From Candidatus Shapirobacteria bacterium (lineage in GTDB: Bacteria; Patescibacteriota; Microgenomatia; UBA12405; JAHJSD01), in the NCBI GenBank assembly GCA_027021145.1, contig JALUUX010000073.1, positions 1 through 34,406 on the forward strand: a stretch of 34,406 nucleotides of DNA. The letters are read 5' to 3'. A program made the translations under genes and the position numbers. The stretch's first letter is position 1. Every line of letters begins with the position of its first letter. A model generated the notes under the pieces. The model was not told where the DNA came from. It saw only the letters and a list, made by a program, of their open reading frames with translations, and searched no databases. Positions 1,612-20,897 of this stretch are shown piece by piece.

Positions 1612-3381
1612 ATGAGAAAAGAAAGAATTATTTTGATAACTATTTTCCTCTTTGGTTTTCTAGTGAGAATTTGGCTGGTAGGAAGATATCCGCCCTTGCT
1701 TTGGGATGAGGCGGCTTTGGGTTATAATGCTTACTCGATTCTAAAGACCGGGCGGGATGAATATGGTCAGCTACTTCCCTTTATTTTTAAATCATTTGGT
1801 GATTATAAGCCTGGTCTTTATGTTTACTTAACCCTACCTTTTGTGGTCCTTTTGGGTCTTAATGAGCTGGCAATTCGTTTGCCATCAGTAATTCTTGGTT
1901 CTCTGACATCCGTTTTTCTCTATCTGTTGGTCAAAGAGATTTTTGAAGATACAAAAATTGCTTTTTGGTCAGCCTTAACTTTAACTTTTTTGCCCTGGTC
2001 GATCCATTTTTCTCGCGGCGCTTGGGAAGCAAATGTAATGACGGCCCTTTTAACTTTAGGAAGTTATTTGCTGGTTAGAAGTAGAAAGTTAAAGTTTAAG
2101 TTAGAGGAAGTTAAAGTAAAAAATTTGAGTAATAAGTTTTTGTTTTTAAGTCTTGGTTGTTTTTTCTTGGCATTATTAACCTACCAAGGGGCAAAGATGC
2201 TGGTGCCGTTGATCTTGATCGGGCTTTTCCTCTTTTTTAAACAATTTAATTTCCAATTTCTAATTTCAGCGAGCGCTAGCGAGCGAATTTCTATTATTTT
2301 GCTTGGAATTTTGATTGTTGCTTGGTATCTTTTTTCTTTTTCTGGTCCGGCAAAGAATCGGCTCAAAGTTATGAGCTTGCTTTCTTATCGTCGACCAGAG
2401 TCCGAAATAAAAACAATTCTTGATGAAGACAGATTGTCAGAGAAGAATTGGCATTTTTATCTGTTTCACCACGAGGGGCTTTATTTTCTCCGCGGTTTTT
2501 TAACTCGCTATTTTAACCATCTCTCTCCTCGATTTCTAGCTTTTGATGGCGATTGGAACAATCCTCGTCATAGTGCGCCATATTTTGGCATGGTTGGTCA
2601 CGTTAATCTTATTTTGTTGTTAATCGGACTAGCCCGTTTTCTTTCTCAAAGGCACAAATTTTCAGAATATTTTTTCCTCTATTGGTTAGTCATTGCTCCA
2701 TTACCAGCAGCGCTTTCCCGAGACATTGTTTCTGGAGTAAGAAGCTTGCCCATGGTAATTCCCTTAAGCTTTTTTATTGGTTATGGAATAGAGAGAATTT
2801 TGAAGTTAAAGTTAGAGTTTAAGTTTAAAGAAGTAAGAAGTAAAAAGTTTAAATTAAGATTATTGATATTAAAGTATGCCCAATTCATTGTTCGCTATTC
2901 AAAATACACAATACTAATATTCTTGATTCTCGATTTCATTTATTGGGCTGACCTTTATTTTGTTCATATGGTTAAACGAAAACCAAAAGATTGGCTTTAT
3001 GGATACAAAGATGCCATAAAATTTGTTCAAGAATACAAAAGTAGAACAGATAAAGTTGTTTTCACTGATTTTTACGGCCAACCCTATATCTATTATCTTT
3101 TTTACTCCCAATATTCGCCTCAAGAATATCAAAGGCAGGCAAGATTAATCGAGAATCAATTTGGTGATGTTGGTCGGGTAGAGAAGATCAATAATATTTT
3201 CTTTGGACCGGTGGACCGAGCTAAAGCCGAAAGTTGCCGCCACTGTTTAGTGATTTTTTCTCAAGACGAAATTTTACGTTCTGGGATCGACAAAGATCCA
3301 CAATTCTTTGCTCAATTAAAGCCGTTAGGAGAGATTAATAATAATCAAGTGATGTTTTATGGATTAAAGATTTTAGATTAG
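1612..3381 (+). CDS. GT-C fold membrane glycosyltransferase, PMT/ArnT-like, paralog B
   Basis: 589-aa ORF with many hydrophobic helices. The first-loop acidic motif PPLLWDEAALGYNAYS and the FKSFGDYKPGLYVY and HFSRGAWEAN motifs are shared with the neighbouring paralogs. The C-terminal domain is soluble (VVFTDFYGQPYIYYLFY). GATAAT at 1597..1602 lies 9 nt before the ATG. Confidence 0.85.
   Translation: MRKERIILITIFLFGFLVRIWLVGRYPPLLWDEAALGYNAYSILKTGRDEYGQLLPFIFKSFGDYKPGLYVYLTLPFVVLLGLNELAIRLPSVILGSLTSVFLYLLVKEIFEDTKIAFWSALTLTFLPWSIHFSRGAWEANVMTALLTLGSYLLVRSRKLKFKLEEVKVKNLSNKFLFLSLGCFFLALLTYQGAKMLVPLILIGLFLFFKQFNFQFLISASASERISIILLGILIVAWYLFSFSGPAKNRLKVMSLLSYRRPESEIKTILDEDRLSEKNWHFYLFHHEGLYFLRGFLTRYFNHLSPRFLAFDGDWNNPRHSAPYFGMVGHVNLILLLIGLARFLSQRHKFSEYFFLYWLVIAPLPAALSRDIVSGVRSLPMVIPLSFFIGYGIERILKLKLEFKFKEVRSKKFKLRLLILKYAQFIVRYSKYTILIFLILDFIYWADLYFVHMVKRKPKDWLYGYKDAIKFVQEYKSRTDKVVFTDFYGQPYIYYLFYSQYSPQEYQRQARLIENQFGDVGRVEKINNIFFGPVDRAKAESCRHCLVIFSQDEILRSGIDKDPQFFAQLKPLGEINNNQVMFYGLKILD
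2077..2136 (+). repeat. in-frame AAGTT(A/T)AAG-type low-complexity segment inside paralog B (encodes RSRKLKFKLEEVKVKNLSNK)
   Basis: The DNA reads agaagtagaaagttaaagtttaagttagaggaagttaaagtaaaaaat... Paralog A has only TDRL at this loop. The 12-mer gaagtagaaagt recurs at 4638..4649. Confidence 0.8.
2800..2916 (+). repeat. in-frame 117-nt K/L/F-rich repeat element inside paralog B (LKLKLEFKFKEVRSKKFKLRLLILKYAQFIVRYSKYTIL)
   Basis: It is absent from the equivalent position of paralog A. It is about 80% identical at nucleotide level to 4602..4724 (94 of 117 aligned nt by hand count), which is higher than the flanking conserved coding sequence. Confidence 0.85.
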
Positions 3382-3404: not shown

Positions 3405-5060
3405 ATGCGCTCACTTCGTTCGCTGATAAGAGTTGTTGACCACGATACTTATCAATCCCTATCAACTCCTATCGTGCGGAGCACACTTATCTTTATTCTA
3501 CTTTTGGCCGCTTTTCTCCGTCTTTATCGGCTAGGTGGTTATCCGCCGCTGAATGTTGATGAGGCGGCTATTGGTTATAATGCCTGGTCGTTGATCCAGA
3601 CCGGTAAAGATGAACACGGCAATTCTTGGCCTCTTCATTTTAAATCTTTCGGAGACTATAAGCCAGGTGGCTATTTTTATCTTGTTCTGCCCTTAGTTAA
3701 ATTCTTGGATCTCAATGAGTGGGCAATTAGATTGCCATCGGCTTTAATGGGAGTGGCGACAGTTTATTTAGTCTATCTTTTAGCCAAAATGCTTTGGCAA
3801 GATGAGGTTCTCGGTCTGATTTGGGCTTTTATTTTGTCGGTCTCTCCCTGGCATATTCATTTTTCCCGAGGAGGATGGGAAAGCAATGCCGCTTTGTTTT
3901 TTACGCTTTTGGCAACTTACCACTTTTTTAGAGCAGAAAAAGAAGAGACTAGGGCGATCACTATTCACTATTCACTATTCACTATTCACTCTCTTTTGGC
4001 GATGTATACTTATCACAGTGCTCGATTAGTGGTTCCTGCCTTGGTATTAGGATTAGCAGCTTTTAACCGAAATTTTCTTTGGAAGAGAAGAAAAGAGTTA
4101 GTTGCTCCCGTCTTCATCAGCTTCTTGCTAGTAATTCCTTTAGCAATTTCGTTTTTGAAAGGTGGTGCCTCAGCCAGATTTTCTGGGGTCGGTCTTTTGG
4201 CTGATCCTGGACCGCTTTGGCGAGTAAACGAGTTAATTGGTCAGCACCAAAAACCAGCCTTAGCCCGATTAATTCATAATAAACCAATCATTTATAGTAT
4301 TGCCTTCTTTCAAAAATACCTTTCCCATTTTAACGGCCGGTTTTTGTTTGTTGATGGTGATGAAGTCCCTCGAAGCAAAGTCCCAGAAATGGGAACAATG
4401 TATCTTTTTGAATTTTGGTTTCTGGCTTTAGGTTTCTGGTTTTGGTTGAAGAAGAAAATAGATCATAAATATTTGCCCATCCTATGGTTGTTGGTAGCAC
4501 CGTTGGCTTCGGCAATGACTTTTCAGGCGCCCAGCGCCTTAAGAGCCCTGCCAATGGTTATTCCTCTGACTTTTTTTGTTGCTCAGGGAATTAAACAAAT
4601 CTTGAAGTTTAAGTTTAAGTTAAAGTTAAAATTTAAAGAAGTAGAAAGTGAAAAGTTGAAGTTAAAATTATTGGCATTGAAATATACTCAATTCATTATT
4701 CAGTATTCAAAATACGGCATACTAGCTCTCTACCTATGGGGAATTGCCTACTGGTGGAACCAGTACTTTGTTCATTATTTGAAACGCTATCCTTCGGCTT
4801 GGCCTGATTTTAGACCAGTAGCCCAGTGGCTTAAAACAAATGGGGATCAATATCAAAAGATATGTATTCAGGGAAAATATGATCAACCCTATATTTTGAC
4901 CCTTTTTTATTTAAGATATCCACCAGAAAAAATTCAAAGAGAGATCAAATTAACCTCGCCGGATAAATTCGGTTTTTCAACCGTAAAGCATTTTGGCAAG
5001 TATTGGTTTAGCGACTGCGAGCAAGATATGTTTGTATTGGGTATTGAGAATGATGAATGA
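3405..5060 (+). CDS. GT-C fold membrane glycosyltransferase, PMT/ArnT-like, paralog C
   Basis: 551-aa ORF carrying PPLNVDEAAIGYNAWS, FKSFGDYKPGGYFY and HFSRGGWESN motifs. It is a multi-pass membrane protein with a soluble C-terminal domain (GKYDQPYILTLFYLRY). Confidence 0.85.
   Translation: MRSLRSLIRVVDHDTYQSLSTPIVRSTLIFILLLAAFLRLYRLGGYPPLNVDEAAIGYNAWSLIQTGKDEHGNSWPLHFKSFGDYKPGGYFYLVLPLVKFLDLNEWAIRLPSALMGVATVYLVYLLAKMLWQDEVLGLIWAFILSVSPWHIHFSRGGWESNAALFFTLLATYHFFRAEKEETRAITIHYSLFTIHSLLAMYTYHSARLVVPALVLGLAAFNRNFLWKRRKELVAPVFISFLLVIPLAISFLKGGASARFSGVGLLADPGPLWRVNELIGQHQKPALARLIHNKPIIYSIAFFQKYLSHFNGRFLFVDGDEVPRSKVPEMGTMYLFEFWFLALGFWFWLKKKIDHKYLPILWLLVAPLASAMTFQAPSALRALPMVIPLTFFVAQGIKQILKFKFKLKLKFKEVESEKLKLKLLALKYTQFIIQYSKYGILALYLWGIAYWWNQYFVHYLKRYPSAWPDFRPVAQWLKTNGDQYQKICIQGKYDQPYILTLFYLRYPPEKIQREIKLTSPDKFGFSTVKHFGKYWFSDCEQDMFVLGIENDE
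3958..3990 (+). repeat. heptanucleotide tandem repeat (CTATTCA) x4 plus partial units, inside the coding sequence of paralog C
   Basis: Four perfect units span 3961..3988, flanked by partial units tca and ct. The tract encodes ITIHYSLFTIHS. Confidence 0.95.
4602..4724 (+). repeat. in-frame 123-nt K/L/F-rich repeat element inside paralog C (LKFKFKLKLKFKEVESEKLKLKLLALKYTQFIIQYSKYGIL)
   Basis: This is the homologous copy of 2800..2916, with one 6-nt indel. Confidence 0.85.
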
Positions 5061-5112
5061 ACAAAATAGCTTATCGGATTATCGGGGTATCGGGGAAAGG
5101 GTGTCAGAGATA

Positions 5113-5544
5113 AGATTATCAGTTAATTTATTTCTTTAATGCAATCGGTACTTAGGCCTGGTTTTGAGAAACTGAGAATTTGGCAAAAAGCTTATGATTT
5201 GATGTTAAAAGTTCATAAACTTTGTAAGTCTTTGCCGCGGGAGGAAAAATTTAGAATAAGAGATCAGGTCGAACGGTCCTCGGCGGCAGTGGTAGACAAC
5301 ATCGCCGAGGGATATGGGGCTTTCTATTTTAAAAACAAAATTAAGTGTTTTTATACTTCAAGGAGGGAGGCGGTTGAAACCCAGAATCATTTGCGAAAAA
5401 TGAATGGTAAGGGATATATTTCGAGATCTGTGGCAGACAGTTTGATTTTAGATTACGAAGGATTGATTAGGGGTATTAACGGAATGATTAATTATATTAA
5501 GGAAAAATCGAGCAGAAGGGGAAAGGGTTAAATTCTGATAATCT
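5113..5544 (+). mobile_element. inverted-repeat-bounded four-helix-bundle gene cassette (candidate selfish or IVS-like module)
   Basis: A perfect 10-bp inverted repeat, AGATTATCAG (5113..5122) and CTGATAATCT (5535..5544), brackets the 5139..5531 ORF. It sits 16 nt before the ATG and 3 nt after the stop. Upstream there are three TATCGG units (5072..5094). Downstream TCTGATAA occurs twice. Confidence 0.45.
5139..5531 (+). CDS. four-helix-bundle protein (TIGR02436 / PF05635, 23S rRNA intervening-sequence protein family; same fold family as DGR Avd)
   Basis: 130 aa with the family signature IRDQVERSSAAVVDNIAEGYGAFY...SRREAVETQNHL. Size and helical pattern are typical of the family. Confidence 0.85.
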   Translation: MQSVLRPGFEKLRIWQKAYDLMLKVHKLCKSLPREEKFRIRDQVERSSAAVVDNIAEGYGAFYFKNKIKCFYTSRREAVETQNHLRKMNGKGYISRSVADSLILDYEGLIRGINGMINYIKEKSSRRGKG

Positions 5545-6445: not shown

Positions 6446-7480
6446 ATGAGAAAAAGAAGAATTAAAGATAAGGCTATAGATACCGTCTCTTCTTTTATTG
6501 GTGGAGAAGACATGAGGGGGAAGGAAGCGAAGGTGTTAGAGGATATTGCTGAGCGGACAGGATTTATTCCTGAAAATGTTATCTGGCGATCTGATTATTT
6601 CGGCTCTGGAAAGCTAGGGGCTGTTCATTATCGCGGATTTTACAAAGGCAAGAAGGTAGTATTGAAGATTCAGGGAGTTAAACCCAGCATCTCCGAGATA
6701 TTTATGATTGAAAGCTTTGCGCGTCAGAACCAGTCCAAAATTATTAGGCCCCCGCGGCTTTTTTATACCATGCCATGGGATACTCAAAGGGGATACGAGG
6801 CCTTAATTATGGAATATGTTTCTGGACCTAAGATTGTTGAGAGTGGCCGGTTACAGACAGAAAAAGATGTAGTTAGTTTTTTCAGGCTTTATCTTGAGTA
6901 TAGGGAAAATTGTCGAAGAAGGCCCTGGTTACCTCGTCCGAAATCGAAACTCTCTTCTAAAGAGGCCTTAGACAGGTTGTTGGCGGTGGCTCAAAAAGTT
7001 AAGCCCAAAAGTCCTTATAGGAGGCTGGAGGATGTAGATTTGGCAAAGGAAGGAGCGGTTATTTTGGATAGGATATGGTCTGGGATTGAGTGGGAGTTTG
7101 TTCATGGCCATTTTTCTGCGGAGGATTTAATTAGAGCCAATGGCGATGTGGTATTGTTTTCTAATCTTTTTTGGAAATGGAAGCATCCTTATTATGACGC
7201 TGTCTTTGCCTATCATTGGTTTATTTATTCTCTGGCTGGTGTAAGAGGCATTACCCCTGAACAGATAGAGAAACAACGTCGGTTGTGGTTGGAAGAGATT
7301 TTTCGTCTCCCCTCACTTAATCACCACTTGTTAAAAGCCGCTCTTTTGGAAAGAGCCATTGCCGGTCTTTTGGTTGACAGCATGGCGTACATCGATGAAG
7401 AAAATCCCGTGGCAGGTTATATGGTTGAGTCGACCAGGAAACAGGTAAGACTCTTAATTAGGGAATTGAAACAGGAATGA
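6446..7480 (+). CDS. protein-kinase-like fold protein (APH/choline-kinase-like), possibly catalytically degenerate
   Basis: KKVVLKIQG resembles the beta3 lysine region. FVHGHFSAEDLI sits where APH-type enzymes have HGDxxxxN. An alternative start at ATG 6512 has a better Shine-Dalgarno (GGAG 5 nt upstream). The stop overlaps the next start (ATGA). Confidence 0.5.
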   Translation: MRKRRIKDKAIDTVSSFIGGEDMRGKEAKVLEDIAERTGFIPENVIWRSDYFGSGKLGAVHYRGFYKGKKVVLKIQGVKPSISEIFMIESFARQNQSKIIRPPRLFYTMPWDTQRGYEALIMEYVSGPKIVESGRLQTEKDVVSFFRLYLEYRENCRRRPWLPRPKSKLSSKEALDRLLAVAQKVKPKSPYRRLEDVDLAKEGAVILDRIWSGIEWEFVHGHFSAEDLIRANGDVVLFSNLFWKWKHPYYDAVFAYHWFIYSLAGVRGITPEQIEKQRRLWLEEIFRLPSLNHHLLKAALLERAIAGLLVDSMAYIDEENPVAGYMVESTRKQVRLLIRELKQE

Positions 7481-8568
7481 AAAAGATTTTAGTGGGCTTT
7501 GATGTTTCGCCGCTTTATTCTGGTCATAAGGTGAGGGGAATTGGGTTTTATACTGAGCGATTGCTAGAGGGATTAAAGGGGTTTAGAGATCTGGAGATAA
7601 GAGAGTTGAGGAGTAAAAAGGAGGTCGATGAGGCCAATTATGATTTACTTCATATTCCTTATTTTCACCCCTATTTTTTTACTTTGCCTTTTAGAAAAAA
7701 GGGGCCATTGGTTGTTACCATTCATGATTTAATCCCGGTCAAATATCCAGAACATTATCCTCCGGGAATAAAGGGGCGCTTACGCTGGGAGATTCAAAGG
7801 GGACTACTTCAAAGAGTAGATCTTGTTATTACCGACTCTTTTGCCTCAAAATCTGACATTGCTCGGTTAACTGGTTACCCTAAAGAGAGAATTCATGTTG
7901 TCTATTTGGCCGCTGATGATGTTTTTAGAGTAATTAAGAGTAAAAGAATATTGAGGGAAATAAAAGAGAAATATCGTCTGCCAGAAAAATTTGTCCTTTA
8001 TGTTGGTGATGTTAATTGGAATAAGAACGTTCCGGGATTGGTGCGCGCCTGTCGAGCAATCGGAGCTCCGCTAGTGATCGTCGGTAAACAAGCAGTTAGG
8101 GACGATTTTGACCCCACGCATCCGGAAAATAAAGATTTAGCTTGGTTGAAGAAAATGAAAGAGAGGCACACTCCCTATATTCTAAATTCTAAATTCTATA
8201 TTCTAACCTTGGGCTTTATTCCCACCGAGGATTTGGTCGCCATTTACAACCTGGCCACAGTTTATTGTCAACCGTCATTTGATGAAGGTTTTGGTTTGCC
8301 AGTAATTGAGGCAATGGCCTGTGGTTGTCCGGTAGTAGCTTCTAATCGGGGCAGCTTACCTGAAGTAGTTGGTAAAGCAGCCATTTTGACAAAGCCAGAA
8401 GTCAAGGACTTGGCTGAAGCGGTCAAATCACTTCTTCAGGACGAAAAAAAGAGGAGAGGGCTTGCTTCTCTAGGACTGAAAAAAGCTAACGAGTTTTCCT
8501 GGCAAAAAGCCGCTCAAGACACTTACTTTCTTTATAAATCGCTAATTGCTGGCCGACTGCGACACTAA
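7477..8568 (+). CDS. GT4-family (GT-B fold, Glycos_transf_1) glycosyltransferase
   Basis: PSFDEGFGLPVIEAMACGCPVVASNRGSLPEVVG is an E-x7-E motif region. The N-terminal VGFDVSPL...GIGFYT is typical of GT4. The last five codons and the stop lie inside the 49-nt repeat. Confidence 0.85.
   Translation: MKKILVGFDVSPLYSGHKVRGIGFYTERLLEGLKGFRDLEIRELRSKKEVDEANYDLLHIPYFHPYFFTLPFRKKGPLVVTIHDLIPVKYPEHYPPGIKGRLRWEIQRGLLQRVDLVITDSFASKSDIARLTGYPKERIHVVYLAADDVFRVIKSKRILREIKEKYRLPEKFVLYVGDVNWNKNVPGLVRACRAIGAPLVIVGKQAVRDDFDPTHPENKDLAWLKKMKERHTPYILNSKFYILTLGFIPTEDLVAIYNLATVYCQPSFDEGFGLPVIEAMACGCPVVASNRGSLPEVVGKAAILTKPEVKDLAEAVKSLLQDEKKRRGLASLGLKKANEFSWQKAAQDTYFLYKSLIAGRLRH
8179..8206 (+). repeat. heptanucleotide tandem repeat (ATTCTAA) x4, with the third unit ATTCTAT, inside the GT4 coding sequence
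   Basis: The DNA reads attctaa attctaa attctat attctaa and encodes ILNSKFYILT, located between the two Rossmann halves. Confidence 0.95.
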
Positions 8569-8599
8569 ATTTGGATACAAAAATGATGTCGCTGTCGGA
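8551..8599 (+). repeat. 49-nt direct repeat, copy 1 (imperfect hairpin containing a stop codon)
   Basis: GGCCGACTGCGACACTAAATTTGGATACAAAAATGATGTCGCTGTCGGA is identical to 9268..9316. The arms CCGACtGCGAC and GTCGCtGTCGG pair with one T:T mismatch around an AT-rich loop. Confidence 0.95.
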
Positions 8600-8604
8600 C
8601 GAGA

Positions 8605-9285
8605 ATGAATAAGGTTAGTCAATTACTAGTCCGTCTATATTGGCTTGAAGAGCTCGAAGTCAAGGCTGAACTGACCAATAAGTTGGTGTTGGGTAAAAAT
8701 CGGAAATCGAGTAGGTTGCTCTTAGAGAATCTTATTAACAATAATTTAATCAATTGTCGCAGAAATAAACTTTTTCTTTCGCCATTAGGAAGAAAATTAG
8801 TCGAAAAATCATTTCCCTTGTGGGCTAAAAGGGATGAGAAATGGTCTGGTTTTTGGTGGGCATTTGTTTTTGATCTTTCGGCGAAAGAAAGAAGTCTCCA
8901 TCGTTCATTATTGAGATTCCTTAGAAGGCTGGGCTTTGGATTGCTTCAGCAGAGCACTTTTATTTCTCCTTATGATTGGAGTAAAGAGTTAAGATTGTGG
9001 TTTAGAATGAGGAATTTAGATCTGACAGGGGATTGGGGAGAAAAAATACTTTTAGTAAAAATGATAGATTTTGATTGTCCGGCAGCTAGTTGTTGGCCTC
9101 TTGACCTAACGAAATCAGCGTATTTAGAAGTCGAGAGAATTAAAAATATCCATGATCAGTTTAAAAAGTTAATTGAGGCAATGAGTATTGATCCTTGGTT
9201 GCCTGATAAGGTCAAAGTTTCAAGTGAGATCAATAAATTAAGAGAAGGGGTAATCTCTACTTTTCTTGGCCGACTGCGACACTAA
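8605..9285 (+). CDS. PaaX-like transcriptional regulator (winged-helix N-terminus plus PaaX-type middle domain)
   Basis: WSGFWWAFVFDLSAKERSLHRSLLRFLRRLGFGLLQQSTFISPYDW resembles the PaaX core (W-x-G-x-W..F..p...R..lr..L...GFG.l....wisP). The N-terminal LINNNLINCRRNKLFLSPLGRKL looks like a wHTH. The protein ends in GRLRH, encoded by repeat copy 2. Confidence 0.55.
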   Translation: MNKVSQLLVRLYWLEELEVKAELTNKLVLGKNRKSSRLLLENLINNNLINCRRNKLFLSPLGRKLVEKSFPLWAKRDEKWSGFWWAFVFDLSAKERSLHRSLLRFLRRLGFGLLQQSTFISPYDWSKELRLWFRMRNLDLTGDWGEKILLVKMIDFDCPAASCWPLDLTKSAYLEVERIKNIHDQFKKLIEAMSIDPWLPDKVKVSSEINKLREGVISTFLGRLRH

Positions 9286-9316
9286 ATTTGGATACAAAAA
9301 TGATGTCGCTGTCGGA
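9268..9316 (+). repeat. 49-nt direct repeat, copy 2
   Basis: Identical to 8551..8599 and again in-frame with the 3' end of the preceding CDS. Confidence 0.95.
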
Positions 9317-9322
9317 TGGGGC

Positions 9323-9351
9323 TTGACGGGATGGTTTTTCGGTGTTTAAAT
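9323..9351 (+). promoter_or_regulatory. candidate sigma70-type promoter for the large surface-protein gene
   Basis: The -35 is TTGACG (9323..9328). After a 17-nt spacer comes an extended -10, TGtTTAAAT (9343..9351). The ATG lies 13 nt downstream and there is no Shine-Dalgarno. Confidence 0.45.
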
Positions 9352-9364
9352 AGAACTGAGATAA

Positions 9365-12300
9365 ATGAAAGGGAGAAGAATTTTTCTTTTGGCATCAATT
9401 TTTAGCTCTCTAGGGTTAGCTTTCTTTGTTTTTAGAACTAGACTTCTGATTAGAGCAGCCAATTATGAGGCAACCATTACTTCGTTCACTGTAGATAGTT
9501 CCAGTCTTGGGGCTACAGGAGTAACCTACACTCTTGAGTTCAAGTTTTCTCAAGATTTTGTTGGGGGGACAGGTAGTTCAGCTAATTTGATTTTGAAGCG
9601 AATTGTGACCCAACAAGGAGCTGATGTCACCTCCAATATGGCCTCAGCCACTGGTTCGATTTCTAGTTTTCAATATCAGGATAGCAATGGCGCCTGGCAA
9701 ACTATCAGCTATGACAATAATAGTTTTTCGGCCCAAATATCTGACTCATTTTTGGTTTATCATTTTAGCGATATTACTACCAATATTCCCGCTAATCGTC
9801 CCATTCGATTAGTTATTGGAGGAGTCACCAATCCTTCGAAGGCGGGAAGTTATGCCTTCGATCTTAGTTTTGCTGATGCTAATGGAAATAATTTTTCGGT
9901 TGAACCCTACAATAATCCCGAGCGAACGGTTCGGGTTGATATTGGGGATTATTGTTTCAAAGTAAAAATTACTGCTCCTGATGGAACAACCGCGATGCCA
10001 GGTCTAGATGTTTTTGTTGATTCGGCTGATCACTCTTTTAACACTTTTCTTAAGACCGACTATTTAGGCTTTGTCTCTTTTTATAGTGACGGCTTTACTG
10101 GTCTGACTAACTGTCCTTCGGGGAGTAATCAAAAAGTTTATCTATTTATTAATATTGGTCCTGATAGTTCTAATCCCAATCACTACTTCCCGCCCGAACC
10201 CACAGTACTTACTTTACCCACTAATCAGGATACTTATGTTAGCAATCCGATTAAGCTAGTCCAAGCTAGTAAGACTATTTCGGGGACGATAACCTATTCT
10301 GATGGTAGTGGTGGAGTTAGTGGGGCGCGGATTAATGCTTTTCAGCCGGACACGGGTCAGTTTACCCAAACCACTAGTGGGAGTGATGGCAGTTTTACCC
10401 TTTATGTTGGTGGTGGTACTTGGGAAGTAATGCCTGAGGCGCAGTCAGACTCTAATTGGGCTTACGGGGCTCCGCCGGAGCGAGTTAGTTTTCAAGAAAA
10501 TACCGAATCGGAATCAGCTACAGTCAATTTTAGTGTTGATAAGGCAACGGCTAGCGTTACTGGCCGACTTTTAAAGCCTGATGGCACGCCTGTTTCGCCT
10601 AGTGAGGGCTATGGAGTAGGGGTTTTTAGTATGGAAGGTAAGGGAGGTGGCGGGCCGGTGGGCAATAATGGCGTCTTTCAGATTAATGTGCCAGCGGGAA
10701 GATATCAGTTTGAAGTCTGGACTCCGCCCGATAGCACTTACGGTTCGCCTGGAGGGAGAACAGTCGAGGTGAAAGAGGGTGAAACCGTCGATTTGGGTGA
10801 TATTACGCTAGTAACTAAGGATGCCACCATTCAGGGAACAGTAAAAGTAGCAGGCACTAATACGGGTGTGGCTAATGTAACGATCAATGCTTTTGTGCGT
10901 GATGGTGGGGGATTCGCGATGACTACTACCGATGCTGATGGTAATTTTAGTCTTTCGGTTACCTCAGGTACTTGGATGGTGATGCCGATGTTTGATCCTA
11001 GTGCCAACTATGCCCTGACTGATCCACCTCAAGAAGTTCGGGTTGCTTCGGGAGAAACGGCTACGGTAACAATTAGTGTTGAGTCAGCTACGGCCACCAT
11101 CCGAGGCAGCTTGGTTGACAGTAATGGCAACTTGGTTTCGGTCTATGGTTATGCTTTTGCGGAAACGCCAGGAGGGGAAATGTTTGGTCCGGGGGGAATG
11201 GGAGGGCCAATTGAGCGCGGCACTTTTTCCTTTAAGGTTCCGGCAGGAAGTTATAATATTAGCGCTGTTTTGGCACCTGGATCAAACTATACTGTCGGCC
11301 AGTCTCAGTCAGTAACCGTAGCCGACGGCCAAACTGGAGCGGTAACGATCAGCTTGGTTCAGAATAACGCCACCATTACTGGCTCAATTTTAGACCAGGA
11401 TGGTAATGCTGTTTCTCCTTCTGACTTTTTTGTTTTTGCCGTCTCAGAAACGGGTGGCCATAAAACTTTTCAAGAGGGGACAGTGAATGGCAGTTCTTAT
11501 ACTATTCAGGTAGCGGCTGGAGAGTGGAGTCTGGGTTATTTCGTTGATCCAAGTACGGGTTATATGTCGGCTCCTCCTGATCCATCGTTACGGTTTACTG
11601 TCAATTCAGGAGAAACAGTGGTTAGAAATATTACTCTTCATGCCGCCAATAGCACGATTACCGGTCGAGTGACGAAGCCTGATGGCTCAGCGGCCGTGGG
11701 GGTTTTTGTCTCCGCCGATAATCGAGAAACTGAGGGAGGGGAGTTTATGAATGGGGCGCCGACTAATAACGACGGTTATTATACTATTCGAATTGCCGCT
11801 GGCAGTTATAAACTGCGAGCTAATGTTGCCCCAGGATCAGGCTACCTTTCGCCGGCCGAGCAGACGGTAACCGTAGCTGATGGAGAAAGTAAAACAGTCA
11901 ATTTTACTTTGCGAGAATCAAATGCTACGATCACGGGTCAAGTAACTTTGAGTGGCGCAGGCAAGCCCGCCTTTGTTTACGCCTGGTCCGAAGATGGTGG
12001 TTTTACCCAGACTCAAGCTAATGCCAGCGGTAATTATAGCCTCTCGGCCTCAACTGGCACTATCTGGCATGTAGGAGCGCGCTATGAATCGGGTACCAGT
12101 GCTTATGAAGCTAGTGAAACAAGGGTGGATTTGACTAGTGCCAATTCTGGTACTGCCAATTTGGCCCTCGCCAGTCTAGATTATAATTTGCCTGAACCCT
12201 ATAGCGTCACTTTTGACGCTACCAAGCCCAAGATTATTACTCTTTCTGATGGCACAGAGATTAATATTCCAGCCAATGCTCTGGCCACCTCAGGTAATGT

Positions 12301-13354
12301 TACTTTGAGCATTGAACCAAAGGTTTCCCTGCCTGCTAAGAAGGGCGATCGGCCAGTTTGGTATGGCTATGAGTTTACCGCTATTAATAGCAGCGGTCAG
12401 ACTATTACCCAATTCAATAGCAATATTACTATTACTTTTCCTTACACTGATGCTCAATTGAACAAGCTGGGAATTACTGCTGACGATCTGATTCCTTCTT
12501 ATTGGGATGATACTTCGGGGACCTGGAAGAAGGTCGATAATGTTACCGTTGATACCACGGCGAAAACGGTAACGATTACCATTAACCACTTTACCAATTT
12601 TGCCCTGACAGCTAATTACACCAGGGGAACCACTAGTTCTACTAGTAGTGGAGCTACTTCGGGAACTAATGCTTCAGGTGGGGTTTCTAAGCCGATGGCA
12701 CCCAAAGAAACTGGCTCCATTGTCGAAGGAGCAACTAATAAAGTGGTTTGGATGATTCCAGCGGGAGCCTTAGAATGGGATGCCGATTTTGAAATGACTC
12801 AATTAAGGGAGGGATTTGAGAAGCCTAAACCACCACTGTGGATTGCCTCGGGTCCTTATCAAGTGACGATGAAGGCTTGGTGGAATGGGGCGAAATTTAG
12901 CCATTTTCGGAAGCCGGTAACTTTAATTATCCGTTATGATCCGACTGCTCTGGGTAATATTCCGGAAGAATCACTGCGACTGAATTATTATGATCCAGCT
13001 AAAAAGCGTTGGCGCCCGCTTAATTCTTTGCTGATTACTGATCGCCACGAGGTAGCGGCGGTAGTGAGTCAAGTTCATGGCCTTTATGCCTTGATTGGTG
13101 GTTTTGGCTATCAGGGAGCGCCGCAATACTTAGAGGAAACGGTTACTGCCACCGCTCGATCAGAAGAAATTGGCTTGAAAGAAGATCTTTTGCCCAAGAG
13201 AGAGGTGAGAGAAGAATTATCCAAAAGTAGTGAGGACCAACCAGTAATTCGCTCCAGTCCCTCGCCAGAACCAGAACCATCGGTTGCGGCAGTTAAACCC
13301 AAAGAGAGTTGGTTTAAGCGGCTTTTAAAGAAAATATTTCCTTTTCTTCGCTGA
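9365..13354 (+). CDS. giant N-terminally anchored cell-surface protein with 7-8 tandem carboxypeptidase-regulatory-like (CarboxypepD_reg/PEGA-like) beta-sandwich repeats
   Basis: MKGRRIFLLASIFSSLGLAFFVF is a signal or anchor helix. Repeat starts are TISGTITYSDGSGG, ASVTGRLLKPDGTP, ATIQGTVKVAGTN, ATIRGSLVDSNGN, ATITGSILDQDGN, STITGRVTKPDGS and ATITGQVTLSGAG, each about 85-95 aa. Two further related C-terminal domains (..YWDDTSGTWKKVDNVTVD.. and ..YYDPAKKRWRPLNSLLI..) are separated by a Ser/Thr-rich linker. The tail is acidic then basic. Confidence 0.8.
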   Translation: MKGRRIFLLASIFSSLGLAFFVFRTRLLIRAANYEATITSFTVDSSSLGATGVTYTLEFKFSQDFVGGTGSSANLILKRIVTQQGADVTSNMASATGSISSFQYQDSNGAWQTISYDNNSFSAQISDSFLVYHFSDITTNIPANRPIRLVIGGVTNPSKAGSYAFDLSFADANGNNFSVEPYNNPERTVRVDIGDYCFKVKITAPDGTTAMPGLDVFVDSADHSFNTFLKTDYLGFVSFYSDGFTGLTNCPSGSNQKVYLFINIGPDSSNPNHYFPPEPTVLTLPTNQDTYVSNPIKLVQASKTISGTITYSDGSGGVSGARINAFQPDTGQFTQTTSGSDGSFTLYVGGGTWEVMPEAQSDSNWAYGAPPERVSFQENTESESATVNFSVDKATASVTGRLLKPDGTPVSPSEGYGVGVFSMEGKGGGGPVGNNGVFQINVPAGRYQFEVWTPPDSTYGSPGGRTVEVKEGETVDLGDITLVTKDATIQGTVKVAGTNTGVANVTINAFVRDGGGFAMTTTDADGNFSLSVTSGTWMVMPMFDPSANYALTDPPQEVRVASGETATVTISVESATATIRGSLVDSNGNLVSVYGYAFAETPGGEMFGPGGMGGPIERGTFSFKVPAGSYNISAVLAPGSNYTVGQSQSVTVADGQTGAVTISLVQNNATITGSILDQDGNAVSPSDFFVFAVSETGGHKTFQEGTVNGSSYTIQVAAGEWSLGYFVDPSTGYMSAPPDPSLRFTVNSGETVVRNITLHAANSTITGRVTKPDGSAAVGVFVSADNRETEGGEFMNGAPTNNDGYYTIRIAAGSYKLRANVAPGSGYLSPAEQTVTVADGESKTVNFTLRESNATITGQVTLSGAGKPAFVYAWSEDGGFTQTQANASGNYSLSASTGTIWHVGARYESGTSAYEASETRVDLTSANSGTANLALASLDYNLPEPYSVTFDATKPKIITLSDGTEINIPANALATSGNVTLSIEPKVSLPAKKGDRPVWYGYEFTAINSSGQTITQFNSNITITFPYTDAQLNKLGITADDLIPSYWDDTSGTWKKVDNVTVDTTAKTVTITINHFTNFALTANYTRGTTSSTSSGATSGTNASGGVSKPMAPKETGSIVEGATNKVVWMIPAGALEWDADFEMTQLREGFEKPKPPLWIASGPYQVTMKAWWNGAKFSHFRKPVTLIIRYDPTALGNIPEESLRLNYYDPAKKRWRPLNSLLITDRHEVAAVVSQVHGLYALIGGFGYQGAPQYLEETVTATARSEEIGLKEDLLPKREVREELSKSSEDQPVIRSSPSPEPEPSVAAVKPKESWFKRLLKKIFPFLR

Positions 13355-20409: not shown

Positions 20410-20428
20410 CCCCGACGATACGTCGGGG
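20410..20428. repeat. GC-rich hairpin H1 (CCCCGACG ata CGTCGGGG)
   Basis: 8-bp perfect stem with a 3-nt loop. Confidence 0.9.
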
Positions 20429-20481: not shown

Positions 20482-20865
20482 ATGAACTACATCAAACTAG
20501 AAGACTTGGATGTTTACCGGTTATCTAGGGAAATCAGTGAAAAGGCTTGGAGTGTTTACAAGGATTTTGGTTGGCGGATAAAGAAAATAGTTGGCGATCA
20601 ATTTATTCGCTCGATTGATTCGATTGGTGCTAACATTGCTGAGGGATATGGACGATATCATTATTTAGATAAGATTAAGTTTTACTATAATGCTCGAGGA
20701 TCATTGTTAGAAGCAAAGCATTGGCTGGGACTGTTAGAGGAAAGGAAGTTGATAGAACCATCGGAAGCATCTTTTCTAAAAGAAGAACTGAGAAGTCTTG
20801 GCATAAAATTAAATAGATTTATTAATTCCACTTTTAAAGCTAAGAATGGCTCGGGGGTAAAATGA
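20482..20865 (+). CDS. four-helix-bundle protein (TIGR02436 / PF05635 family), second copy
   Basis: 127 aa with GDQFIRSIDSIGANIAEGYGRYHY...ARGSLLEAKHWL, the same NIAEGYG signature as 5139..5531. Confidence 0.85.
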   Translation: MNYIKLEDLDVYRLSREISEKAWSVYKDFGWRIKKIVGDQFIRSIDSIGANIAEGYGRYHYLDKIKFYYNARGSLLEAKHWLGLLEERKLIEPSEASFLKEELRSLGIKLNRFINSTFKAKNGSGVK

Positions 20866-20879
20866 AATTATTAATTTCA

Positions 20880-20897
20880 GCCCCGAAACGTCGGGGC
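20880..20897. repeat. GC-rich hairpin H3 (GCCCCGA aacg TCGGGGC)
   Basis: 7-bp stem with a 4-nt loop, 15 nt after the four-helix-bundle stop codon. Confidence 0.9.

Follow-up and report, generated by a model that had tools for sequence, protein, structure and literature searches.

The locus described here raises the question why a single PaaX-like gene, in a member of the almost wholly uncultivated candidate-phyla-radiation (CPR) bacteria about whose gene regulation very little is known, is enclosed by two identical palindromic repeats. Within the window, by which we mean the whole stretch of 34,406 nucleotides that was analysed (Candidatus Shapirobacteria bacterium, contig JALUUX010000073.1), the gene follows a GT4 glycosyltransferase gene and precedes the gene of a giant surface protein (Table 1). 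A previous inspection of the DNA alone (hereafter the sequence-only reading) had seen in repeat and gene a cassette-like unit reminiscent of recombination sites or of a target duplication. Our analysis points to another answer, as the repeats are probably a pair of dyad-symmetric operators to which the product of the enclosed gene, a dimeric winged-helix protein of the PaaX family, binds.

Table 1: Features of the PaaX-like locus (positions in the window).
Feature	Position	Strand	Remarks
GT4 glycosyltransferase gene, 363 aa	7477..8568	+	last 5 codons (GRLRH) read into copy 1
Repeat copy 1	8550..8599	.	46-bp imperfect palindrome 8553-8598, dyad axis between 8575/8576
Left half-site CCGACTGCGACA	copy 1 8553..8564; copy 2 9270-9281	+	half-site scan
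Right half-site CCGACAGCGACA (minus strand)	copy 1 8587..8598; copy 2 9304-9315	-	half-site scan
PaaX-like gene (PaaX_M), 226 aa	8605..9285	+	PF20803 44.1 bits; AF2; Foldseek
Repeat copy 2	9267..9316	.	identical to copy 1; dyad axis between 9292/9293
Promoter-like TTGACG-N17-TTAAAT of the giant gene	9323..9351	+	conserved in alignment
Giant CarboxypepD_reg-repeat surface protein gene, 1329 aa	9365..13354	+	candidate target of the regulator

The 49-mer matches the window exactly twice, at 8551–8599 and 9268–9316 without any mismatch, and none of 100 dinucleotide shuffles contained even one match. As one further T is common to both copies the repeat extends to 50 nt, and the copies are exactly identical and in direct orientation with a spacing of 717 nt. 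A strain contig from another sample (ERZ27262676 in ENA, k=141), which is 99.9% identical to the window with 12 SNPs in 13 kb between these two sampled strains, also contains both exact copies. A Logan contig breaks off after exactly the first 30 nt (k-1) of copy 1, as is expected for a repeat branch in a k=31 graph. An assembly artefact as the source of the repeat was ruled out by the second independent assembly with both copies together with the end of the Logan contig. Two independent assemblies thus contain the identical repeats that the sequence-only reading had described on both sides of the PaaX-like gene.

Each copy is a 46-bp imperfect palindrome composed of 12-bp outer arms and an inner TTTGGA/TACAAA dyad on the same axis, with a centre of 20–24 bp between the arms. 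Read from the sequence, the arms pair with a T:T at 8558/8593 as the sole mismatch, which is also the only difference between the right and the left half-site, and the repeat ends are CCGAC/GTCGG. With the full-site pattern written as CCGACWGCGACA-N22-TGTCGCWGTCGG, the half-site CCGACWGCGACA was found in the 34-kb window only in both copies, plus one match with 1 mismatch within a CDS. For the hairpin an RNA MFE of −23.9 kcal/mol was calculated (z = −4.9), and none of 200 shuffles folds equally well, in agreement with the earlier description as an imperfect hairpin with one T:T. Copy 1 covers the last five GT4 codons with the TAA and ends 6 nt upstream of the PaaX-like start codon, and copy 2 covers the last five PaaX-like codons with the TAA and ends 6 nt upstream of the −35 hexamer of the giant gene. 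Both upstream ORFs (7477–8568 and 8605–9285) enter the repeat in the same frame and, as had been noticed before, end in GRLRH followed by the repeat-encoded TAA. The GRLRH part of the GT4 tail is not conserved in GT4 orthologues, and in the related locus L010 the PaaX-like ORF alone reads into the palindrome (ending in …FLSRL and the stop codon), with the GT4 stop located about 30 nt ahead of it. The common tail results only from the left arm being read in frame by both ORFs and is incidental.

The protein encoded between the repeats belongs to the family PF20803 (PaaX central Cas2-like domain), which it matches above the cut-off of 24 bits with E = 2.2e-11. Its AF2 model (pLDDT 94.6) contains an N-terminal winged HTH with the order H-H-H-beta-beta at residues 3–58, and the top Foldseek matches of the model were 3kfw (E = 8e-7), 8a39 (PaaX from E. 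coli W, E = 2e-5) and 3l09, with 221–275 aligned columns and a TM of about 0.5. According to this model the protein has the PaaX fold with winged helix, Cas2-like domain and C-terminal helices, and it shares family and fold with PaaX from E. coli and Pseudomonas. However, it is not an orthologue of these proteins: it gave no match to the PaaX equivalog TIGR02277 and thus is not PaaX proper (with a cut-off of 264.55, the relatives P0132 and P0124 reach only 87 and 54 bits), no paa catabolic genes were found among the scanned window ORFs, and the locus is a surface-glycosylation cluster. PADLOC gave no defence-system match for the protein and literature searches for PaaX in CPR bacteria found nothing. 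The operator bound by E. coli PaaX is TGATTC-N27-GAATCA, and the protein represses transcription from its own promoter (review PMC9493321). Like these operators, known from the autorepression of Px, the window sites have inverted arms, a long centre and one site by the start codon of the regulator, and judged by the length of arms and centre and by the 6 nt between copy 1 and the ATG their architecture is compatible with the PaaX type. In contrast to PaaX, a second, near-identical site is found at the stop codon of the gene.

Four members of the close PaaX-like subfamily are known, those of the window, L010, L005 and L004, and all of them are placed after GT4 and flanked by homologous repeats with within-genome identities of 100, 95, 86 and about 75%. 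Between the window and L010 three substitutions are found, which are symmetric in both arms and both copies and thus preserve the dyad. The copy-1 sequences of L005 and L004 are 83% alike, compared to 61–67% with copy 2 of the own genome, and the right halves of all four copies are 79–88% alike, showing that both copies are old and retained and not a fresh duplication. All copies across the subfamily genomes share a conserved right half, and four genomes keep both copies though the regulators are only 37–43% identical to that of the window. The proposed unit of repeat and gene is therefore a real module conserved at this position in four genomes. Two reservations of the sequence-only reading do not apply, as relatives with the gene also have the flanking repeats and as only two copies in the 34-kb window do not make a dispersed REP- or terminator-like element. 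Word-indexed protein searches found only 2–4 proteins of the close subfamily and an exhaustive profile search added one, P0125; a profile search with a 3-protein alignment gave no more members in genome and metagenome contigs, and a degenerate palindrome pattern gave four unrelated matches in metagenome contigs, for example in a hydrogenase locus.

It had also been suggested to look for orthologous loci without the 717-bp unit, and five of them were found (L006, L008, L009, L091 and L092). In the first four GT4 lies directly ahead of the giant-gene promoter and no solo copy of the palindrome was detected, and in L092, the only gene-less locus with a short CCGATCGG palindrome nearby, a toxin-antitoxin pair follows GT4 at the spot of the module. 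PaaX pseudogene remnants were not found by tblastn in L006, L008, L091 and L092. In six genomes, some with and some without the PaaX module, the giant-gene promoter shows the consensus TTGAC(A/G)-N17-TTnnAT. In a tree reconstructed from a 4-protein concatenate, presence and absence of the module are interleaved as (window,(L091 without, L005 with)),(L006, L008 without), and the tree of GT4 only is star-like. We counted for operators that relatives without the regulator gene are also without the palindrome, and against them that the module has a patchy distribution with clean absences.

To take the wider family into account, 72 PaaX-like genes were compared with 96 control genes, and a flanking repeat pair was found for 39 of the former (54%) and 4 of the latter (4%; Fisher p = 5e-14). 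These family pairs have a median length of 38 nt and a median identity of 87% and are nearly all palindromic; two actinobacterial PaaX-family genes checked for this layout did not show it. As the same layout is shared by about half of this CPR regulator family, the palindrome most likely serves as binding site of the regulator itself rather than as part of a recombination cassette. Across the family the median distance from the end of copy 1 to the start codon downstream is 14 nt, and the centre of copy 1 is located within a −35/−10 promoter-like pair in 8 of 29 cases, compared to 3.4% at random positions (p = 4e-6), one example being TTGACA-N16-TACAAT, whose −10 ends 8 nt upstream of the ATG. 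The right arms of L010, L005 and L004 contain the −10 motif TACAAT. In the window it is replaced by TCGCTG and a consensus promoter scan found none at copy 1, which we counted against operators. Copy 2 tracks the stop codon of the regulator (median +1 nt) and not the start of the next gene, bears a promoter in just 1 of 25 cases and is followed by a long convergent ORF in at least 5 loci, and thus a role of copy 2 as operator of a target gene is not general. The centre is conserved across the family (CGATCG, CGGCCG or CGACCG; CGRYCG) and the arms are variable, with different arms also for paralogues within one MAG. A conserved centre with varying arms is a signature of hairpin-loop recognition too. 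Across 32 family members, no specific signal of covariation of the operator arms with the wHTH region was obtained.

In a model with paired operators, copy 1 in the promoter or 5' region of the regulator would serve autoregulation, and copy 2 at its 3' end and against the −35 box of the giant gene would probably be a second, cooperative (auxiliary) site, acting either through a DNA loop that spans the ~700-bp gene or on transcription into the giant gene, which it would control directly or road-block. Pairs of similar operators that are separated by a few hundred bp up to a few kb, the second often beyond or inside a coding region, lead to cooperative repression by looping, as in lambda with cI between OL and OR, lac with O1–O2 and gal with OE–OI. 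By analogy, the two candidate operators of the window might also act by looping or oligomerisation, but here the second site is consistently found at the regulator's own stop codon. We infer the binding of the protein to the sites and the role of copy 2 from anatomy, conservation and family-wide occurrence of the sites, their overlap with promoters in relatives and the fold of the protein. The locus would then be a candidate switch for a giant surface protein within a glycosylation cluster, and a large, CPR-expanded PaaX-like family would be paired with candidate sites that can be read directly from the genome, as the site is written on both sides of the gene. Dozens of such protein-site pairs are open to testing.

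A mobile or excisable cassette, in which the palindromes are sites of recombination or transposition (as double-stranded core or as hairpin) and the PaaX/Cas2-like gene is cargo or mobiliser, is unlikely. It would agree with the interleaved presence of the module at one locus, with the toxin-antitoxin pair at the same spot in L092, with the finding of family genes between unrelated housekeeping genes (aaRS, enolase, PRPP synthase, DprA) and with copy 2 being tied to the gene's own stop codon; the palindrome at both ends would be direct and inverted terminal repeat at once, and in having a conserved 6-bp centre and variable arms the sites are similar to hairpin loops or recombinase core sites. 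A gene between identical hairpin repeats is, however, not by itself evidence of such a cassette. The scan of the larger window ORFs revealed neither a recombinase nor a transposase, and recombination between the copies should leave one site, which is missing from all gene-less loci except for the short palindrome of L092. Near-identical genes are found only in L031/L032, an identical pair from two assemblies of maybe the same organism and without flanking repeats; leaving these out, pairwise identities among the 76 family genes have a median of 35% and do not exceed 86%. Orthologues retain their own operators, the arms differ between paralogues of one genome, unlike sites of a shared host recombinase, in many relatives copy 1 lies within the promoter of the gene, and phage collections contain next to no members of the family (1 locus in IMG/VR, none in INPHARED).

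The comparison with known mobile systems gave a similar picture. With integron cassettes (ORF and attC) the locus shares a short ORF with an imperfect palindrome, a unit of ~0.7 kb and one unpaired stem position, but the window has no intI among the ORFs scanned, no GTTRRRY core and no array, its two sites are identical and not cassette-specific, and the single gene between them appears to have its own promoter in relatives. The CGRYCG centre of the wider family, the inverted arms and the one bracketed gene are reminiscent of dif/pdif and tyrosine-recombinase core sites with their 6–8-bp centre, but the centre in the window is 20–24 bp long, no Xer-type gene is linked and, besides the differing arms of paralogues, four of the five gene-less loci are without a solo site. 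An attL/attR element is not indicated either, as no recombinase was found and GT4 abuts the giant-gene promoter without a palindrome in L006, L008 and L091, and an IS200/IS605 or REP/RAYT element does not fit the PaaX fold, which is not the HUH fold, nor the two copies in the window. Without a recombinase among the larger window ORFs scanned, an integron-type core or a solo copy, and with sites that diverge along with their host, the earlier idea of recombination sites or a target duplication found no support. It also appears quite unlikely that palindrome, wHTH/Cas2-like gene and palindrome of CPR bacteria form a self-contained, insertable and cleanly excisable unit, with sites read as hairpins or cruciforms and the PaaX-like protein as a structure-specific DNA-handling factor and not (only) a classical repressor. 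If true, a Cas2-fold protein that works on palindromic repeats at its flanks would be relevant to the question how Cas2 and CRISPR repeats were brought together.

An RNA-level role of the hairpins, whether in termination, insulation, processing or transcript stability or, as a 5' structure, in masking the start codon, is unlikely. The strong predicted fold and the position of copy 1 close to the ATG would suit such a role, as would T-rich tails at 4 of 26 copy-2 sites and some copy-2 sites of the family that are extended hairpins with A/T tracts, as in L077. But 22 of the 26 copy-2 and 29 of 30 copy-1 sites are without T-tails, and in the window a loop of 20–24 nt and the tails CGAGAATG and TGGGGCTT without a T-run after either copy do not correspond to an intrinsic (Rho-independent) terminator. 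A terminator scan found just one small non-significant hairpin at 9309–9329 (3 found compared to 1.9 expected), and the covariance models of Rfam 15 gave only a chance-level match inside the CDS (E = 0.95). Many palindromes are loopless and perfect through the centre, which RNA hairpins do not require, and the mismatches in the palindromes of the family (26 G:T and 34 A:C) are not biased towards wobble pairs on the sense strand. In sites with a recognisable promoter the −10 lies in the right arm, and the gene's own transcript would thus not hold the whole hairpin. The absence of a G:U bias and of an Rfam family and the few T-tails were counted for operators.

Very unlikely is a functionless by-product, a remnant of gene conversion or of a tandemly duplicated promoter region that owes its identity to recency alone: the copies are indeed 100% identical across all 50 nt, non-symmetric positions included, and the two sampled strains are too close to show constraint, but both copies persist in four genomes with strongly diverged regulators, all of them retain the conserved right half, and the layout is common in a large, old family and rare among control genes. 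We counted against operators that they do not need full identity over a non-symmetric centre. For paired operators, this identity would result from selection for the same binder together with recent homogenisation by gene conversion.

The 49-mer occurs exactly twice in the window, at 8551-8599 (copy 1) and 9268-9316 (copy 2), with 0 mismatches, and 100 dinucleotide shuffles yielded 0 matches; one more common T extends it to 50 nt with a copy spacing of 717. As both exact copies are also present in a second, 99.9% identical assembly from another sample and a Logan contig end falls exactly k-1 = 30 nt into copy 1, the repeat is genuine, which bears out the sequence-only reading of an exact repeat at two sites with both ORFs ending in GRLRH-TAA. 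Its predicted fold has -23.9 kcal/mol (z = -4.9). Each copy is a 46-bp imperfect palindrome with a single dyad axis, which in copy 1 (8553-8598) lies between 8575 and 8576 and is shared by the paired outer arms (8553-8564 and 8587-8598, sole mismatch T:T at 8558/8593) and an inner dyad at 8570-8581 with the halves TTTGgA and TaCAAA. The half-site CCGACWGCGACA is found in the window only in the four arms, besides one 1-mismatch match in a CDS. The ATG of the PaaX-like gene follows 6 nt past the end of copy 1, and 6 nt likewise separate the end of copy 2 from the promoter-like pair of the giant surface-protein gene, which is kept as TTGAC(A/G)-N17-TTnnAT in six related genomes with or without the PaaX-like gene. 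A consensus scan also reported a small terminator-like hairpin at 9309-9329, made up of the copy 2 3' end and the -35 region with the tail GATGGTTTTT; terminator-like sites in that region are not above expectation (3 observed, 1.9 expected).

Features of the locus and repeats of the related loci L010, L005 and L004 from other genomes
Feature	Window position	Length	Copy identity	Spacing	Remark
GT4 glycosyltransferase ORF	7477-8568				
ORF with PaaX central Cas2-like domain	8605-9285				
Promoter-like TTGACG-N17-TTAAAT	9323-9351				13 nt upstream of giant-gene ATG
CarboxypepD_reg-repeat protein ORF (giant gene)	9365-13354	1329 aa			
L010 repeat		56 nt	95%	707	
L005 repeat		36 nt	86%	722	
L004 repeat		~34 nt	~75%		

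The AlphaFold2 model of the PaaX-like protein (pLDDT 94.6) shows an N-terminal winged helix of three helices and a beta-hairpin, a ferredoxin-like domain and C-terminal helices. Its best whole-chain PDB matches are Rv0674 (3kfw), PaaX from E. coli W (8a39) and a PaaX-like protein from Jannaschia (3l09), and its separate domains are matched by MarR/DtxR-type wHTH proteins and by Cas2. Members of the wider family score below the cut-off of the full-length PaaX model TIGR02277 and share 26-30% identity with annotated paaX genes, and no paa genes were found among the window ORFs scanned. The protein is a divergent PaaX-family member and not a PaaX orthologue. For E. coli PaaX, a review (PMC9493321) gives TGATTC-N27-GAATCA as the binding site and describes autorepression at the Px promoter.

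The bracketing is found across the family. An exhaustive profile search gave 2603 representatives at E <= 1e-3, and scanning one genome per species yielded at least 569 loci of the family; the best 80 of these were retained. Aligning 230 nt around the start codon to 260 nt around the stop codon (score >= 15 counted as a pair), we detected a flanking pair for 39 of 72 family genes versus 4 of 96 neighbouring control genes of similar size (Fisher p = 5e-14). The repeats, with a median length of 38 nt and a median identity of 87%, are nearly all palindromes: AT-rich arms, which vary from one paralogue to another and do so also inside a single MAG, surround a centre of CGATCG, CGGCCG or CGACCG. 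The median distance from the end of copy 1 to the start codon is 14 nt, and that from the stop codon to the beginning of copy 2 is 1 nt. A remote member (23% identity, other context) lies between two copies, 94% identical, of a perfect 36-nt palindrome, each beginning at a stop codon; two actinobacterial plasmid-borne PaaX-family genes showed no flanking pair. The dyad centre of copy 1 lies within a promoter-like -35/-10 pair in 8/29 cases compared to 3.4% of random positions (p = 4e-6), the -10 ending 6-13 nt before the ATG in 7 of these 8 (e.g. TTGACA-N16-TACAAT); for copy 2 this holds for 1/25. Copy 2 has no fixed place with respect to the following gene: according to heuristic gene calls, diverse housekeeping genes lie downstream of copy 2 at varying distances, several long downstream ORFs being convergent. 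About half of the record titles among the best 80 loci name Patescibacteria lineages, and many species-representative MAGs among L011-L090 that carry CPR-type PaaX-like genes are TPA assemblies titled 'uncultured Gammaproteobacteria bacterium'; these titles look unreliable. The family locus L076 has four related palindromes (2187-2217, ~2297-2332, 2975-3005 and 3187-3217), two of them bracketing a GC-richer non-coding stretch of ~180 nt without Rfam or tRNA match, in L042 (~3255-3290) one arm recurs behind copy 2 as short tandem repeats (gtctactgactt three times), and in L082 an AT-rich tandem expansion distinguishes copy 2 from copy 1 (sites 2301-2365 and 2968-3037).

The libraries searched contain only four genes of the close subfamily (window, L010, L005 and L004), all four directly after the GT4 gene and all four repeat-flanked, and their eight copies can be aligned colinearly. 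Each L010 copy is a near-perfect 46-bp palindrome, CCGATTGTAACACCAAAATTATA followed by TATAACTTTAGTGTTACAATCGG. Between L005 and L004 the copy-1 sequences are 83% and the copy-2 sequences 71% alike, compared to 61-67% for copy 1 and copy 2 within one genome, and the right halves of these four copies are 79-88% alike; both copies therefore existed before L004 and L005 separated and were retained. Within a genome the copies are 100% identical in the window and 98% in L010; compared across these two genomes they are only 62-65% alike. In the window/L010 branch the copies have additionally been homogenised. Three substitutions between window and L010 are symmetric, affecting the two arms of each copy (CCGAT to CCGAC and TGTAAC to TGCGAC, matched by complementary changes opposite); the dyad symmetry of the site is therefore under selection.

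The mismatches in 44 palindromes (26 G:T, 34 A:C, 66 other) reveal no wobble bias of the sense strand, many family palindromes are perfect through the centre, T-rich tails follow only 1/30 copy-1 and 4/26 copy-2 sites and no Rfam family matches the repeat. These results speak for a symmetric dimer recognising duplex DNA rather than for an RNA hairpin.

The sequence-only reading had compared the gene plus repeat to a recombination cassette. The unit is real, and its patchy presence among relatives, the diverse neighbour genes across the family and the tie of copy 2 to the regulator gene's own stop codon would fit a cassette. Orthologous loci without the unit, which that reading had proposed to look for, were indeed found: the PaaX-like gene is absent from five related loci (L006, L008, L009, L091, L092), and in L006, L008/L009 and L091 the GT4 gene adjoins the giant-gene promoter without any palindrome. 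As a concatenated four-protein tree, (window,(L091,L005)),(L006,L008), interleaves loci with and without the gene, the module was lost cleanly, or gained, more than once. However, the larger window ORFs scanned showed no domain of a recombinase or transposase, and four of the five gene-less loci have no solo site, L092 showing only a short CCGATCGG palindrome ~155 nt past GT4. Furthermore, the phage records searched contain no family member and 2.9 million IMG/VR contigs contain one locus, and near-identical proteins are missing except for L031/L032 (100% identical, without flanking repeats, from two differently named assemblies that may be one organism); the next closest pair shares 86% identity, against a median of 35%. 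The reading as a cassette or as recombination is unsupported and retains a low probability. In L092 a PhdYeFM/PIN toxin-antitoxin pair occupies the position after GT4, and the 14-nt perfect palindrome there (TGTCCGATCGGACA, ~2757-2770, then TTGACA) resembles the joined outer ends of the 46-bp site, a similarity that is not statistically significant. The L091 junction is maximally compact, with the GT4 stop codon TGA forming part of the giant-gene promoter's -35 hexamer TTGACA (~5080-5090).

Most likely, the two repeats are paired operators for the PaaX-family regulator. Judging from fold, family precedent and dyad conservation, a dimer would bind both arms of each 46-bp site. Binding to copy 1 may control the regulator's own expression, as supported by the overlap with promoters in relatives; the window has TCGCTG where L010, L005 and L004 carry TACAAT in the right arm, and no promoter was detected at copy 1 by the consensus scan. 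Least certain is what copy 2 does: a dimer there would sit flush against the -35 of the giant-gene promoter and could repress or activate it, stop read-through, or act together with copy 1 through a loop of the ~700-bp gene. As an element the site pair would be of an ordinary kind; what is unusual is its family-wide arrangement as a bracket, which the literature searched does not describe for CPR bacteria.

In the window, the GT4 and PaaX-like ORFs run into the left portion of the repeat in one and the same frame. The L010 PaaX-like ORF terminates within the left arm, with FLSRL*, and shares its frame with the FLGRLRH* of the window. As the L010 GT4 gene stops ~30 nt before copy 1 and the C-terminal tails of GT4 orthologues are variable, the common GRLRH tail is an incidental read-in of the repeat.

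The window ORFs scanned represent a surface-glycan locus with PMTs, GT2, GT4, an ABC-2 exporter, a sulfotransferase and heptose-pathway-like enzymes. Inverted repeats of 72 nt (1537-1608 and 5064-5135, 76% complementary) bracket two tandem PMT paralogue genes (1612-3381 and 3405-5060) that have a 117-nt stretch with 80% identity in common. Another small gene bracketed by repeats encodes a 127-aa PF05635 protein (23S rRNA intervening-sequence protein / bAvd-like; 20482-20865) and splits the ABC-2 permease/ATPase pair; its flanks carry similar GC-rich hairpins, CCCCGACGATACGTCGGGG (20410-20428) and CCCCGAAACGTCGGGG (20881-20896), each followed by a similar CGAA(A/T)TT..AATT tail. The ORFs scanned include no DGR reverse transcriptase. 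Between the PMT pair and GT2, the glycosylation cluster has a second PF05635/bAvd-like gene (130 aa, 5139-5531); a homologue is found in the same cluster of relatives, at this position in L001/L002 and between GT2 and GT4 in L091 (3574-3930).
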